Virus record (IMG/VR): IMGVR_UViG_3300031963_000058
Span: 24,100-88,099 of that record
Source: a virus
Taxonomy: Duplodnaviria; Heunggongvirae; Uroviricota; Caudoviricetes
DNA length: 64,000 nucleotides
Direction: 5' to 3' (one strand)
The translations under genes were made by a program, and so were the position numbers. Every line of letters starts with the position of its first letter. Positions within the stretch are counted from its first letter, which is position 1. The notes below the pieces were generated by a model. It saw only the letters and a list, made by a program, of their open reading frames with translations. It was not told where the DNA came from and searched no databases. Below are positions 36,798 to 48,561 of the stretch, piece after piece.

Positions 36798-37337
36798 ATG
36801 AAAAAGATAAGATTAACAGAGTCAGAACTAACACATTTAATTAGAAAGGTGATTAACGAGAATTCTGATCGTGAAGCTTTAAAAGATGTTATTTTAGGTA
36901 GATCGTATTTCATACATGATGGTAATATGTATGAATTAACAGGTTATAGATTACTTTATGAACTAACTAATGGTAAAAAAATTATTGCTTTTTGTAATAA
37001 AGAAGATGCTAACGCTGTTACGGGAGCACGTGGACGTGGCTTAAGTAAGAATACTTTTTACGTTAAAGATGTACAATTTCTAGACGTATTAAATGATAAT
37101 ATCGAAAAGTCTATTAGATACAAAGAATCAAATGACTATATAGTTAATACAATGGCGAACAAGATAAAGTTAACTAGGATAAAGTTTCTTTTAACTTTAA
37201 AGCCTTCTGGAGCCATGTCACCAAACCTTTATAATAAACTCATGAGTAATGAGTTATTTACTGGTATGGGCTTACCTGTTCATTCTACTCCTCCATATAA
37301 AGAAACTGAAATGGACTTTGCGGATAATATTGATTAA
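36798..37337 (+). CDS. hypothetical protein with the shared N-terminal RLTE module (179 aa)
   Basis: The N-terminus MKKIRLTESELTHLIRKVINE matches the module seen in 47203, 47711, 48151 and 43458, and internally in 40..1035. Confidence 0.5.
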   Translation: MKKIRLTESELTHLIRKVINENSDREALKDVILGRSYFIHDGNMYELTGYRLLYELTNGKKIIAFCNKEDANAVTGARGRGLSKNTFYVKDVQFLDVLNDNIEKSIRYKESNDYIVNTMANKIKLTRIKFLLTLKPSGAMSPNLYNKLMSNELFTGMGLPVHSTPPYKETEMDFADNID

Positions 37338-37378
37338 TATTTCTGACAAACTAGAAACAATTAAAAAAACATAACAAC

Positions 37379-37564
37379 ATGAAAAATAAAAATAAACAGC
37401 ACCCTTGGTTGTTTCCTTCAGTTTTTTTAGCACTAACTTTAGGAATATTTCTTAGCTTTCATTTCAAAACTATTTTTCATGTAATGCTTAGTTGCGGTAT
37501 TTCTATTGCGGTCACGGCATTTATTTATCTTTTTTGGGCAGCCTTTCTTAAACATGGTAATTAG
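37379..37564 (+). CDS. small two-TM membrane protein (61 aa)
   Basis: Two hydrophobic segments; its end overlaps the next gene. Confidence 0.35.
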   Translation: MKNKNKQHPWLFPSVFLALTLGIFLSFHFKTIFHVMLSCGISIAVTAFIYLFWAAFLKHGN

Positions 37565-37916
37565 TACTTTAACAATTAACACTCAGAATGAAATACCGCC
37601 AAATATAAGCGAACAAATCAAAGAAGTTATATGTGTTATTAAGGCATCTCCATATAATGTTGGTGCAGAAATAGTTAGTGGAATGTATCGGCAGGAACCA
37701 ACGGATGAAGTTCCTGCCGGATATATCGGGTGTGATTTGTTGTTATACTATAATCTTAATCTCGAACACAAAGGTATACTTAAACTATTTCTCAGACATG
37801 CCACTTGTGAAGCTATCTTGTTCTTTGGTGAAGATCTGACTAAAGAGTTTATTTGGGGTATGATTAATGATATTATCAATGATGCGAATTACCATAATAA
37901 GATTGTGATTATCTAA
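37554..37916 (+). CDS. hypothetical protein (120 aa)
   Basis: The internal ATG at 37554 overlaps the upstream stop. The listed ORF starts at 37506. Confidence 0.45.
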   Translation: MVISTLTINTQNEIPPNISEQIKEVICVIKASPYNVGAEIVSGMYRQEPTDEVPAGYIGCDLLLYYNLNLEHKGILKLFLRHATCEAILFFGEDLTKEFIWGMINDIINDANYHNKIVII

Positions 37917-37927
37917 TATTTAAATGT

Positions 37928-38158
37928 ATGAATAAATTTAAAAGGCAACCAAAAGTAATCGTTAAAGACATTCATGGTAACTCTTTCGGTATTAAGAATG
38001 TGACCAGCCTTTGCTGGAACTCAGAGGGTAAAATGGATTCTATTTATTGTGAGTTTGCAACTGATAGTGGTAAGATCATTATGTTTGACTCTGACGGGAC
38101 AAATGTTTTTCGTAATCATACCGGGAATCTAATCGCTGAATTTTTTGAAGAAAACTAA
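37928..38158 (+). CDS. hypothetical protein (76 aa)
   Basis: ORF. Confidence 0.4.
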   Translation: MNKFKRQPKVIVKDIHGNSFGIKNVTSLCWNSEGKMDSIYCEFATDSGKIIMFDSDGTNVFRNHTGNLIAEFFEEN

Positions 38159-38169
38159 AAAAATATATT

Positions 38170-38316
38170 ATGTTGGAAAATTGGTTGAACAAAAATTTTA
38201 TGCAAAAACTATATGACATCTTTTGGTGGATTATGTATGCAATTCTTGGATTTTTTGCATTTTGTGCCGTCGCAGTATTTTTTTGTTATTTTTTTTTTGG
38301 TAATTTGAAAAACTAG
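38170..38316 (+). CDS. small hydrophobic membrane protein (48 aa)
   Basis: Unlisted ORF with a W/F-rich TM helix. Confidence 0.25.
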   Translation: MLENWLNKNFMQKLYDIFWWIMYAILGFFAFCAVAVFFCYFFFGNLKN

Positions 38317-38319
38317 TCT

Positions 38320-38327
38320 TACCTTTG
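38320..38327 (+). promoter_or_regulatory. Bacteroidota-type -7 box TACCTTTG
   Basis: About 20 nt upstream of the ATG at 38347. Confidence 0.5.
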
Positions 38328-38346
38328 TGGTCTAAAACAACTGATC

Positions 38347-39045
38347 ATGATAATCGACTCTAAATATAAAGACTACTACGACTACTGCAAGGCTTTCATG
38401 GGGGAAGATCCTCTTGTTAGATATGAAAGGAACTGTGAGTATGAATTTAAATTTGTGAATAGAGGTATTAATATGTTTGTCACAGATCTACTGTTGAACA
38501 GATTCTTTATCTGCGGGCTTGTTATTGATGTTCTGGTTGATGTTAACAATAAGAAACTATTGATGGGTGAAGATATCATTGACTTATGCAATGAGCAAAA
38601 GATTACCTACAATAATAAAAGGACATATTATTACGTACCTAACACTTCTAGAAAGATTGTTAGCCTTATCCTTAGAGCGAGTAAATCGGATAAGATATTC
38701 AGTCGTGAGTATGTGTTAACTGAGCCGGTAACATTTGATGAATATAAACAAATATTCATCAATAATTTCAACAGTGCTAACAAAAATCCAAAATACCATT
38801 CGATGTATAGGGACTGGAACAACATTATGGATTGCCCTGTTGTTATTGCTAATAATCGTGGTGCATTTAAAAATCCAGTTTTATCTGACTGGAAGATAAG
38901 TAGCATCATTCCGGCTGAAGAAATGTACTTGAAAATCACGAATTGGCTACTTGAACGGCAAGATATCGCAGTTATTGATCAAAGAACGGATGTTGAGAAA
39001 TTGACTTCTCACGGTTTTGACAAGAAAACTTCTTTTCGTCATTGA
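38347..39045 (+). CDS. hypothetical protein (232 aa)
   Basis: ORF. The antisense ORFs 38382..38591 and 38631..38939 are rejected. Confidence 0.5.
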   Translation: MIIDSKYKDYYDYCKAFMGEDPLVRYERNCEYEFKFVNRGINMFVTDLLLNRFFICGLVIDVLVDVNNKKLLMGEDIIDLCNEQKITYNNKRTYYYVPNTSRKIVSLILRASKSDKIFSREYVLTEPVTFDEYKQIFINNFNSANKNPKYHSMYRDWNNIMDCPVVIANNRGAFKNPVLSDWKISSIIPAEEMYLKITNWLLERQDIAVIDQRTDVEKLTSHGFDKKTSFRH

Positions 39046-47113: not shown

Positions 47114-47130
47114 CTGTGAGGTTTGTAGAT

Positions 47131-47170
47131 AAAAAAAATGCACAACCGTAAATTATTGTAGTTTTTTTTT
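47131..47170 (+). terminator. Degenerate copy of the A-run/TGCACAA.../T-run terminator cassette
   Basis: AAAAAAAATGCACAACCGTAAATTATTGTAG followed by a T10 run. Confidence 0.4.
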
Positions 47171-47202
47171 TATCAAGATATTTATTATTAAAAATAATAA
47201 TT

Positions 47203-47601
47203 ATGAAAAAAATTATAAGACTAACTGAAGATGATTTAACAAGGATTGTTAAACGAATTATTAGCGAAGAAAAAAAATCAAAACATACGGATTATTATCG
47301 TATATATGGAGGAAAAAACAAGAAAAATCCTCCGTTTGAACCGGGTACAAAGATAAAACGTAAATGGAGAGTAGATGATGATGGAGAAGTAATAAAAGAC
47401 GGAAGAGAAATGTATGAGTTTGTGAGAATGGACGGAAACGTGATGAAGTTAAGGCCTCTAAACAAAGAGGCTCTATATAGTCAAGATACCACGCATCCAG
47501 AATATATAAAAAAGAATCAAAAAGCTGGATATAAGCCTAGATATGAAGATCTTGTACAGCTTCACTATAATCACGCAGACGCTTTCGAAGTCGTAAGTTA
47601 A
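47203..47601 (+). CDS. hypothetical protein with the shared N-terminal RLTE module (132 aa)
   Basis: N-terminus is MKKIIRLTEDDLTRIVKRIISEEKK. Confidence 0.5.
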   Translation: MKKIIRLTEDDLTRIVKRIISEEKKSKHTDYYRIYGGKNKKNPPFEPGTKIKRKWRVDDDGEVIKDGREMYEFVRMDGNVMKLRPLNKEALYSQDTTHPEYIKKNQKAGYKPRYEDLVQLHYNHADAFEVVS

Positions 47602-47656
47602 CCTTAAACTTCATAATTTATTTCTTAAAAAAGATAATCAATAATTATCATACAAT

Positions 47657-47693
47657 AAAAAAATGCACAATCATTGGCGATTGTGCATTTTTA
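47657..47693. terminator. Bidirectional terminator hairpin (ATGCACAATC / GATTGTGCAT, 10-bp stem) with an A7 run and a T4 run
   Basis: Perfect inverted repeat between convergent genes. A near-identical copy lies at 48122..48160. Confidence 0.7.
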
Positions 47694-47710
47694 TGTGGGG
47701 GACATAGTTA

Positions 47711-48091
47711 TTAGTTATTTTCCATTTCATCAAATTTCTTGACTAAGAATTTCCATATTTTTTTAGCCATGCTGTAAGAGCAATCAATTACTTTATTATC
47801 ATACCTAACAATTAAACTATTCATAAGTAAAACAGGTATAGATGTATCTTCAATCTCTAAATATGTTTCGTCATGGAGCCTATACTTGATGATAGAATAA
47901 TTAGATTTTACAGATAGATTTTTAGGATTAAATGTGTTTTCAATATAATCTAATATCTCACTTAATTTTTTATCCTCATCTGAAGTTATTTTTTTATCAA
48001 AAAAAGCCTCGTCTAACTTTTTTTGTTCATTAATGACTTTTTTAACAATTTTTGTTAAATCATCTTCAGTCAATCTTATAATTCTTTTCAT
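47711..48091 (-). CDS. hypothetical protein with the shared N-terminal RLTE module (126 aa), paralogue of 48151
   Basis: N-terminus is MKRIIRLTEDDLTKIVKKVINEQKKLDEAF. Confidence 0.5.
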   Translation of the reverse strand: MKRIIRLTEDDLTKIVKKVINEQKKLDEAFFDKKITSDEDKKLSEILDYIENTFNPKNLSVKSNYSIIKYRLHDETYLEIEDTSIPVLLMNSLIVRYDNKVIDCSYSMAKKIWKFLVKKFDEMENN

Positions 48092-48121
48092 AATTATTTT
48101 TTTAATAATAAATATCTATAA

Positions 48122-48160
48122 TAAAAAAAAACACAATCATTGGCGATTGTTCATTTTTTT
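48122..48160 (-). terminator. Terminator hairpin (ACAATC ATTGGC GATTGT core) with an A9 run and a T7 run; duplicate of the 47657 cassette
   Basis: Near-identical sequence to 47657..47693. It lies 3' of 48151..48561. Confidence 0.6.
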
Positions 48161-48561
48161 ACGATCCTTTTGGGCTTATTAATAGGTTTAATAATTGATT
48201 TTGATTTAAAGAAATTCCATATTTTTCTGGCCATTATATACGAGCAACGAATCTCCTTACCATCTAATAATACAATCATGTTACTGTCTGGGGGTAAAGA
48301 TAACCAAGCATTCACCACCCTTAAAACTCCAGCAGAACCTCCAAAAATTCTGTATTCATACATATATCCATTAGGATATAGAGATAAATCATCTAGATTA
48401 AAATTATCTTTGATAATTTTAAAGATATTTTCTAACATTTCATCATTTTCTGAAGTGAATATACTACGAATAAAAGCCTCGTCTAAGTTTTTTTGTTCAT
48501 TAATTACTTTTTTAACAATCCTGGTTAAATCATCTTCAGTCAACCTTATAGTTCTTTTCAT
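48151..48561 (-). CDS. hypothetical protein with the shared N-terminal RLTE module (136 aa), paralogue of 47711
   Basis: N-terminus is MKRTIRLTEDDLTRIVKKVINEQKNLDEAF. The C-terminal halves also align (CSYIMARKIWNFF vs CSYSMAKKIWKFL). The antisense ORF 48140..48589 is rejected. Confidence 0.5.
   Translation of the reverse strand: MKRTIRLTEDDLTRIVKKVINEQKNLDEAFIRSIFTSENDEMLENIFKIIKDNFNLDDLSLYPNGYMYEYRIFGGSAGVLRVVNAWLSLPPDSNMIVLLDGKEIRCSYIMARKIWNFFKSKSIIKPINKPKRIVKK

Follow-up and report, generated by a model that had tools for sequence, protein, structure and literature searches.

The window analyzed here, a 64,000-nucleotide stretch of the Caudoviricetes record IMGVR_UViG_3300031963_000058 from IMG/VR (positions 24,100 to 88,099), encodes a set of otherwise different proteins that share a 22-residue peptide module, in all but one case as their N-terminal leader. 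We find that the module sits on unrelated, exchangeable cargo, that selection acts on its amino acids, and that it is essentially confined to viral sequence, with T4-type head genes recurring on module-bearing contigs. By analogy with the capsid targeting sequence (CTS) of phage T4, we tentatively propose, at somewhat short of an even chance, that the module is a prohead-loading propeptide, a functional analogue and not a sequence relative of the CTS, and that a gp21-type protease would cleave it off. T4 already provides the principle of one capsid-targeting leader common to diverse cargo; as far as the libraries show, neither this particular leader nor its clade has been described, nor has its use on such a scale (about 8,000 protein clusters), in multiple copies or at internal sites.

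An original prediction, made from the nucleotide sequence, had placed six copies of the module in the window, and all six were located: the motif [LIVMT]TE[SDTAEG][DEQ]L has six matches and no more in the six-frame translation, all of them at the predicted places. The same six are recovered from that translation by a hidden Markov model (HMM) built from 155 IMG/VR module sequences (hereinafter the outside HMM), from which the window sequences were excluded so that the test is not circular; the next window match stands at E = 1.1 and the best match in a reversed-sequence control at 0.58. Four copies are strong. Copy 1 (MKKIRLTESELTHLIRKVINE, 36798..36860, + strand; E = 9.8e-10) opens a 179-aa open reading frame (ORF) at 36798-37337, and copy 2 (MKKIIRLTEDDLTRIVKRIISE, 47203..47268, +; E = 2.8e-14) a 132-aa ORF at 47203-47601, whose product is also encoded on a 277,584-bp contig. 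On the opposite strand, copy 3 (MKRIIRLTEDDLTKIVKKVINE, 48026..48091, -; E = 5.1e-14) is the N-terminus of the 126-aa ORF 47711-48091, and copy 4 (MKRTIRLTEDDLTRIVKKVINE, 48496..48561, -; E = 2.7e-14) that of the 136-aa ORF 48151-48561. Copy 5 (MNKLIITETQLNNIVKNVIFE, 43458..43520, +; E = 2.4e-5) is a diverged version at the N-terminus of the 182-aa ORF 43458-44006. Copy 6 (MKMTESELRFLIYNIVSE, 349..402, +; E = 1.1e-3) lies at about residue 118 of a 345-aa ORF ending at 1035; it is truly internal, since longer contigs place the start of this ORF 3 nt before the window and no promoter-like motif stands directly upstream of the copy.

Two weaker resemblances accompany these copies. The same 345-aa ORF opens with a possible half-module, (M)RYDRIAQQIINE followed by A (1..36, +), which comprises the helix part only and ends in I-I-N-E-A; it is a weak likeness noted by eye, and the HMM score of this opening (MRYDRIAQQIINE) is not significant. 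Directly upstream of copy 6, the window portion 1-348 encodes a pair of repeats whose calcium-binding loops are EF-hand-like (DMNKNGKLDRDDF and DLNRNNKLDREDF); these score slightly under the curated cut-offs of the Pfam EF-hand models. The other is a look-alike, MAKIIITTEQLATLVRE (16810..16863, +), at the start of the 95-aa ORF 16810-17097. It has a promoter-like motif 13 nt upstream; it reaches E = 0.36 with a circular HMM and is undetected by the outside HMM, and we do not count it as a copy.

Across 201 distinct IMG/VR proteins, the module has the consensus MK[KR]IIRLTE[SD][DE]LxRIVK[KR]VIxE, with conservation running from M1 to E22 and then ending. T8, E9, L12 and E22 are invariant, L7-T8-E9 is near-invariant as a unit, and the 15 residues after E22 are variable and richer in Asp, Glu and Gln than the remainder of the protein. 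The module comprises a short extended segment (KIIRL) and an amphipathic helix (TESDLxRIVKRVIxE) with a hydrophobic stripe formed by L12, I15, V16, V19 and I20. An AlphaFold2 model of the 48151 product (pLDDT 76.7, from a four-sequence alignment) has residues 1-8 extended and residues 9-34 as one long helix that starts at the module TE, after which come a helix, a five-stranded sheet and a C-terminal helix; Foldseek finds no significant match for this model in the PDB or BFVD. The corresponding model of the 36798 product is uninformative (pLDDT 35). The secretion signal that the original prediction had listed among possible roles is not supported, the peptide being highly charged (about 45% of residues), limited to hydrophobic runs of at most two residues and also used internally; it does not have the build of a Sec, Tat or lipoprotein signal peptide, in which a positive N-terminal region precedes a hydrophobic core of 10-20 residues and a cleavage site. 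At the codon level, synonymous entropy at L7, T8, S10, R14, R18 and V19 is near the background of the same genes: L7, for example, is encoded by TTA, CTT and CTA, T8 by all four of its codons, and R18 by AGA, CGA and CGT. This free synonymous variation within the module indicates selection on the peptide, and not on DNA or RNA.

What follows the module is strikingly heterogeneous. When the first 25 residues are removed, BLASTP links only the 47711 and 48151 products (35% identity, 9e-15), precisely the one related pair that had been predicted, and every other pair of window cargoes gives E >= 0.01; each cargo is an orphan that offers no profile for remote homology, and the unrelatedness is thus to be read at the level of BLASTP. 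The 36798 cargo has just two related clusters, and homologue searches with two of the window cargoes return near-identical sequences only. In IMG/VR, 197 tails behind the module group into 143 BLAST clusters, of which 114 contain a single tail, and any Pfam match at all is seen in only 6 of 98 module-protein representatives. The 201 distinct proteins have a median length of 146 aa, the cargoes span 75 to more than 600 aa, and some of these display membrane-like segments or peptidoglycan-binding domains. Moreover, cargoes of 95-98% identity can have different leaders, the point of exchange lying within the module. The anatomy first proposed, a conserved leader on unrelated cargo, is thus upheld, and it reflects neither low-complexity noise nor global homology. 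The clade also uses other recurrent leaders, such as ..I(I/S)TEEEKxRILxLH/Y.., ..NIHRIKEMMGL.. and MNKSYSKLRHIQEANQILEKRMLNEKK... (e.g., L011 7092-7952 (-), L019 9089-10591 (+), L022 660-1622 (-), L053 347-2215 (+) and L102 404-1612 (-)), which in part precede homologues of cargoes that bear the module elsewhere.

Neither the module nor the window cargoes behind it match a family above noise in Pfam, NCBIfam or PHROG, a profile search against the PDB returns at best an unrelated ribosomal protein (E = 0.07), and neither its motif strings nor a topical search retrieved anything relevant from the literature library searched. A 30-position profile searched against 1.84 billion metagenome cluster representatives recovers 7,994 proteins at E <= 1e-3, of which 131 reach E <= 1e-10. 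Nearly all of the 7,994 align with the profile at residues 1-26; many of them contain a second or third copy deeper in the sequence, and some copies are without a preceding Met. A back-translated pattern for MK[KR]IIRLTESDL finds at least 120 IMG/VR stretches on contigs of 4 to 412 kb, with up to nine module genes in a single locus of about 14 kb. The same strict pattern has no match in 185,579 bacterial and archaeal species (one genome each). A looser pattern gives 18 matches in cellular assemblies, nearly all from Prevotella or other Bacteroidales, and these Bacteroidales matches carry a variant leader with a four-residue insertion (MNKKLIRLTESDLHRIVKESVNRVLNE; hereinafter the H-variant). 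Neither the consensus nor the H-variant is detected by tblastn in 50,697 deposited phage genomes, hundreds of T4-like ones included, under conditions in which a local control was detectable. Accordingly, the module is essentially confined to viral sequence. Two cultured strains have the H-variant, namely Segatella bryantii DSM 11371 (L138 6932-7195, WP_039869731.1) and Prevotella sp. MA2016 (L141 5795-6823), and it is also present on contigs of other metagenome-assembled genomes (MAGs) of rumen Prevotella (L128-L145). One of these copies adjoins a glycoside-hydrolase-like gene; another lies within a 342-aa protein whose gene is next to a transposase-like one. Among several of these loci, conservation also extends to about 100 nt of upstream DNA.

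The flanks of the module genes in the IMG/VR loci belong to one related group of tailed phages, with genes for a baseplate wedge protein, a ClpA/B-like ATPase, ribonucleotide reductase, terminase, portal and major head protein as recurring neighbors. Pfam profiles identify, on module-bearing contigs, the Gp23 major capsid protein (5e-73 and 1.5e-72), the Portal_T4 (Gp20) domain (4e-75) and Peptidase_S77, the gp21 prohead core protease (1e-22 to 5e-22). Locus L117 has the order protease, 381-aa module protein, 71-aa gene, scaffold-like gene and Gp23, and two to four variant-leader genes adjoin the protease, scaffold and Gp23 genes in L109 and L031. The S77 protease gene of a further relative is at L019 4372-5091, and the scaffold proteins of the clade measure 515-521 aa. 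An independent scan with the capsid motif of the clade yields at least 120 loci, all of which have Gp23-like proteins among the matches listed; modules are present in 15 of the 120 loci listed, including 13 of the 48 that are 8 kb or longer, and the 296-kb contig 3300044633_000899 combines the capsid motif with several canonical modules. The association of module and head genes is one at the level of the clade and not of the operon, and a clustering of module genes with head genes, which we considered, is without statistical support. The link of the window phage to this clade is indirect: the best matches of its SbcC-like protein, Microcystis phage Mel-JY01 and LR756508.1, are both also among the best matches of the clade Gp23, and its SbcC-sigma block is syntenic with a module-bearing IMG/VR contig. 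We infer that the genome from which the window comes may have T4-type head machinery as well.

The T4 system offers the closest precedent. Its internal head proteins enter the scaffolding core via a CTS of about 10 aa (PMC5694885, PMC9958956, PMC3012670), and gp21 removes the CTS-bearing propeptides as well as the 65-residue propeptide of gp23, always cutting after Glu; observed gp21 sites in Alt are I-T-E at residue 6 and L-T-E at residue 619 (PMC5694885, PMC9958956). The internal proteins of T-even phages are diverse proteins that have only a CTS in common (PMC3012670). Like the module, the CTS (on IPI, IPII and IPIII, with a similar propeptide on Alt) is a short N-terminal leader on diverse small proteins with a hydrophobic-x-Glu end, and it belongs to phages with a Gp20 portal, a gp21/S77 protease and Gp23 (for the module, in relatives), in which the cargo genes are hypervariable and scattered (PMC3012670, PMC9958956, PMC5694885). 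The two differ in that they have no sequence similarity and in length (22 aa as against about 10), and the module is also found internally, in two or three copies per protein and on far more genes of one genome (here about 5%).

The likeness extends to the predicted cleavage site. In all 117 of the 117 clade capsid proteins examined, a hydrophobic-x-E followed by A is invariant at about residue 58; the site reads L-I-N-E-A in 113 of them, with Y, S or L variants in four, and the sequence downstream is variable. For T4 gp23 itself, we take SFLTE to end at residue 65, in agreement with the published propeptide. The clade L-I-N-E/A is predicted to correspond to the T4 maturation site (ASFLINE-A vs GSFLTE-A). 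The module in turn ends in V/I-I/V/L-x-E, with the Glu invariant and a variable polar sequence after it (VINE three times, IISE, VIFE and IVSE in the window), and the leader thereby contains a predicted gp21-type site of the form hydrophobic-x-Glu. The Prevotella-type variant differs in helix length and still ends in I/V-L-x-E, and most of the other leader types that we read end in two hydrophobic residues, x and Glu. In ORFs that have no module by our detection, residues 6-25 contain hydrophobic-[LIV]-x-E some 2- to 4.5-fold more often than protein interiors do; this set includes related sequences and probably also undetected leaders. A separate idea, that the module helix mimics a scaffold segment (LVKESLNE), was rejected, as the module HMMs give the scaffold proteins no score.

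Other packaging systems provide partial parallels. In the phiKZ-like giants, the SPN3US paralogs gp53 and gp54 have identical N-terminal propeptides (PMC5694885), and diverged paralogs such as these and the phiKZ inner-body proteins share a propeptide with prohead-protease motifs ending in Glu; the heads contain many packaged proteins, and a propeptide has multiple cleavage sites (PMC5694885). These phages differ in having an S80 protease with A/S/G-x-E specificity and leaders shared among paralogs only, as compared to the S77 protease of the relatives, the hydrophobic-I-x-E and the unrelated cargoes found here. Encapsulins are more distant still: they have usually C-terminal peptides that are not removed by a protease, they form cellular nanocompartments, and no encapsulin shell gene was seen here. 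Their cargo-loading peptides illustrate how a short conserved terminal peptide brings diverse cargo into an HK97-fold shell.

The upstream DNA bears on both the proposed role and its rivals. About 30 nt upstream are shared by the four strong copies, AGATATTTATTATTAAAA..ATG, and contain the promoter-like motif GATATTTAT. This motif stands at 36773..36781 (+), 25 nt upstream of the copy 1 ATG; within the shared block at 47177..47185 (+) upstream of copy 2 and at 48108..48116 (-) upstream of copy 3; and at 48578..48586 (-) upstream of copy 4. A hairpin with a T-run resembling an intrinsic terminator lies at 47659..47692 (-), between the convergent module genes 47203-47601 and 47711-48091, and a further hairpin and T-run terminator at 43401-43427 precedes copy 5. 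Overall, the promoter-like motif is found 20-28 nt upstream in 64% of module genes as compared to 26% of other genes. In its form [AG]TATTTAT(A), it precedes 21 gene starts of the window at distances of 12-50 nt, and a tRNA-Met at about 20 nt (e.g., at 13709, 16796, 18389, 24859, 32188, 36773 and 47177 on the + strand and 30421, 48116 and 48586 on the - strand), and it resembles the Bacteroidetes -7 box TAnnTTTG with the last G replaced by A. In related phages, [AG]TATTTAT precedes the capsid, scaffold and protease genes (it is also seen in L019, L109 and L117), and it precedes DnaB-like, large polymerase-like and other non-structural genes too. It is thus a general element of these phages, and a late promoter common to module and head genes was rejected on this account; standing before structural and non-structural genes alike, the motif provides no information on the timing of expression. 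No Shine-Dalgarno signal is present upstream of the module genes, positions -14 to -5 being 57-70% A and at most 8% G.

If the module is a prohead-loading propeptide, its helix would let the cargo dock on the scaffolding core during prohead assembly, and a gp21-type prohead protease (Peptidase_S77) would cut after E22 of the hydrophobic-I-x-E, and possibly also after the L-T-E at E9. Once matured, the cargo would remain inside the head and be delivered to the host along with the DNA, and a protein bearing two or three modules would be a polyprotein that yields separate cargoes on cleavage. We infer docking, cleavage, packaging and injection by analogy with T4 and from the co-occurrence of module and head genes, and the case is a circumstantial one. 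The virion-packaging signal envisaged in the original prediction fares accordingly: the T4-type head genes of module-bearing relatives and the shared hydrophobic-I-x-E favor it circumstantially. A bolder version holds that the leader is the universal head-loading tag of abundant uncultured T4-like Bacteroidota phages of lakes and probably the rumen, that every leader-bearing gene product is packed and injected, the multi-module proteins being such polyproteins, and that the other leaders take the same route; this we regard as possible and more probably wrong than right.

Several observations weigh against a head-loading role. A four-residue match to the capsid site would be expected by chance at roughly 1-2%, which makes it suggestive and not decisive. 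The T4 CTS is N-terminal, whereas some copies of the module are internal and lack a Met, and the roughly 5% of window genes that bear the module would imply tens of packaged species per virion. The cargo is not basic like the T4 internal proteins, its pI being no more basic than that of control ORFs. In the 48151 model, the helix passes through E22 to residue 34, placing E22 at no obvious domain boundary. No T4 core gene was recognized within the window, and module genes have a density of about 0.23 per 10 kb beside the capsid gene, as compared to about 1 per 10 kb in the window. To these can be added the occurrence of the promoter-like motif before non-structural genes, and the chromosomal H-variant loci of 8 kb, in which no phage gene was recognized by reading the ORFs, the family libraries not having been searched.

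As the main rival, the leader could instead be a generic partner-binding or oligomerization helix with no virion link, which would tether effectors to one hub (the host polymerase, the ribosome, a membrane complex, or a phage replication/transcription factory) or dimerize them. Such a helix would account for the heptad-like hydrophobic stripe and for the long exposed helix at residues 9-34 of the AlphaFold2 model, two or three copies per protein would suit a repeated binding motif, and the scatter of module genes among accessory-type and not structural genes, the promoter motif in common with replication genes and a Prevotella/Segatella chromosomal variant that is not obviously tied to a capsid point the same way. 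It leaves unexplained, however, why conservation stops at a hydrophobic-I-x-E that matches the predicted capsid site and why unrelated leader types have the same ending, and no candidate hub was identified; we consider it unlikely on balance. The shared interaction helix named in the original prediction is, in itself, compatible with the data and does not exclude packaging, as the CTS is also a binding helix and the two accounts partly overlap. More specific partners can be imagined. A 683-aa ClpA/B-like ATPase (AAA_2 1e-55, ClpB_D2-small) is the second most frequent large neighbor of module genes (13 loci), and N-terminal peptide tags are a known route of Clp substrate recognition; hence, the module might be a degron or unfolding handle by which accessory proteins are offered to this phage AAA+ unfoldase/protease. 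This neighbor frequency is, however, about the chance level for a single-copy gene in loci of 10-14 kb and indicates no specific link, and the internal copies and the conserved terminal Glu would be unaccounted for, which makes this explanation improbable.

The remaining alternatives deny the peptide a role as a tag. One takes the entire 5' end (promoter, short untranslated leader and first 22 codons) for a DNA recombination handle or expression cassette whose peptide is functionless, recalling the PeSL cassettes of T4-type hyperplastic regions, in which small accessory genes lie between a promoter and a stem-loop terminator and the conserved flanks favor shuffling. The upstream block common to the four strong copies besides the coding module, the self-contained make-up of each of them with its own promoter-like motif and terminator, the swapping of leaders between near-identical cargoes at a junction inside the module, and the enrichment of the promoter-like motif before module genes all accord with this picture. 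PeSLs, however, are non-coding DNA, whereas the module is a translated peptide under selection at the amino-acid level, with synonymous sites nearly as free as elsewhere and amino acids fixed; the peptide is kept across about 8,000 clusters with differing upstream DNA, and its internal copies have no promoter. A cassette with a functionless peptide is therefore hardly probable; recombination at the module may well occur, without explaining the conservation. The basic, hydrophobic strand followed by a T-E-x-x-L helix also resembles the start of a ribbon-helix-helix fold, of which the module could be the strand and first helix in a family of regulators. This is very improbable: neither Pfam nor NCBIfam yields a match at E <= 0.01 to 1, there is no conserved second helix, the sequence past E22 is variable and acidic or polar, the cargoes vary in size (75 to >600 aa) and in part include the membrane-like segments and peptidoglycan-binding domains, and the AlphaFold2 model has a single long helix. 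Finally, in an AT-rich genome with common MKK...-type N-termini, the likeness could be one of chance among K/E-rich helices, or be due to global homology. The outside HMM values reaching 2.7e-14 with a clean gap to noise, the 7,994 matches, the four invariant residues and the BLASTP-unrelated tails reduce the probability of this to almost nothing.

Should the head-loading tag prove true, the injected protein set of a large clade of uncultured phages would become readable from sequence. Injected proteins are the first to meet host defenses, and such sets are today available from the proteomics of only a few model phages. The module would then mark thousands of candidate anti-defense and host-takeover proteins, a hypervariable arsenal, and T4-type capsids could be loaded with foreign proteins by means of a second packaging tag, longer than the first. 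Should packaging be wrong, a 22-residue peptide that precedes about 8,000 unrelated families and is in no curated library searched constitutes a sizeable gap in phage annotation.

As for the genomic setting, the window has a GC content of about 30%, is crowded with small ORFs and very large tandem paralog arrays, and has no close relative among deposited phages; its sequence could be placed on an 89-kb and the above-mentioned 277,584-bp metagenome contig (ena:ERZ27247984:k141_1797313), of which it takes up roughly 189,588-253,587 in reverse orientation, whereas an exact 66-mer of the window had no match in IMG/VR. Directly upstream, an SbcD/SbcC-like pair is accompanied by genes for a sigma-70-family factor, an Amidase_2 endolysin and an SLT domain, and DUF3310 and NUDIX genes occur close by. 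The hairpin/T-run terminators together with the SbcCD, sigma factor, amidase and SLT genes identify the source as a phage of bacteria. An origin from a giant eukaryotic virus, which the low GC and big paralog arrays might evoke, is rejected by these same features and by the T4-type head genes in relatives. The hosts are most probably Bacteroidota, to judge from the terminators and gene content, the A-rich upstream regions without a Shine-Dalgarno signal, a Flavobacterium phage as the closest cultured relative of the clade capsid protein, and the occurrence of the module or a variant in a Bacteroidetes MAG and in Prevotella/Segatella genomes.

The largest of the tandem arrays consists of paralogous 94-114-aa genes (MSKEEYYNKIKRFIYRKFDELEV...), which extend over 51228-63820 (-) and past the window end (L146). 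At least 37 of the window copies cluster by BLASTP, and they have no family match; on the 277-kb contig, this array goes on and is followed by an opposite-strand run of genes for proteins of about 100-110 aa, possibly further copies. Another array at 19226-28610 (+) contains about ten genes of roughly 300 aa, eight of which cluster by BLASTP; the one examined (19226-20185) has no Pfam match. A third paralog group, of 160-190-aa genes, lies just upstream of the module gene at 36798, at 34118-36416 (-) and possibly 31253-33274 (-), with four members clustering by BLASTP. Paralogous genes at 46382-47113, 48642-49478 and 50267-50734 (+) bracket the three module genes at 47203-48561, and the segment 46382-50734 looks like a locally duplicated and rearranged block. 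The overlapping ORFs 39390-39767 and 39628-40026 (+), in different frames, encode C-termini that look paralogous, (K/E)AKK(E/Q)GK(S/P)WA...Y(N/W).....Y, and the C-terminal third of the 472-aa protein at 41006-42424 (+), which has no Pfam match, is made up of G(T/R)WHNG(T/I)F-type repeats. The gene at 28657-29481 (+) codes for a class II aminoacyl-tRNA-synthetase-like catalytic domain (tRNA-synt_2 4.5e-8, phrog_29758 3e-98), and its product displays 73% identity to proteins on other module-bearing jumbo IMG/VR contigs (L058, L059 and L091).

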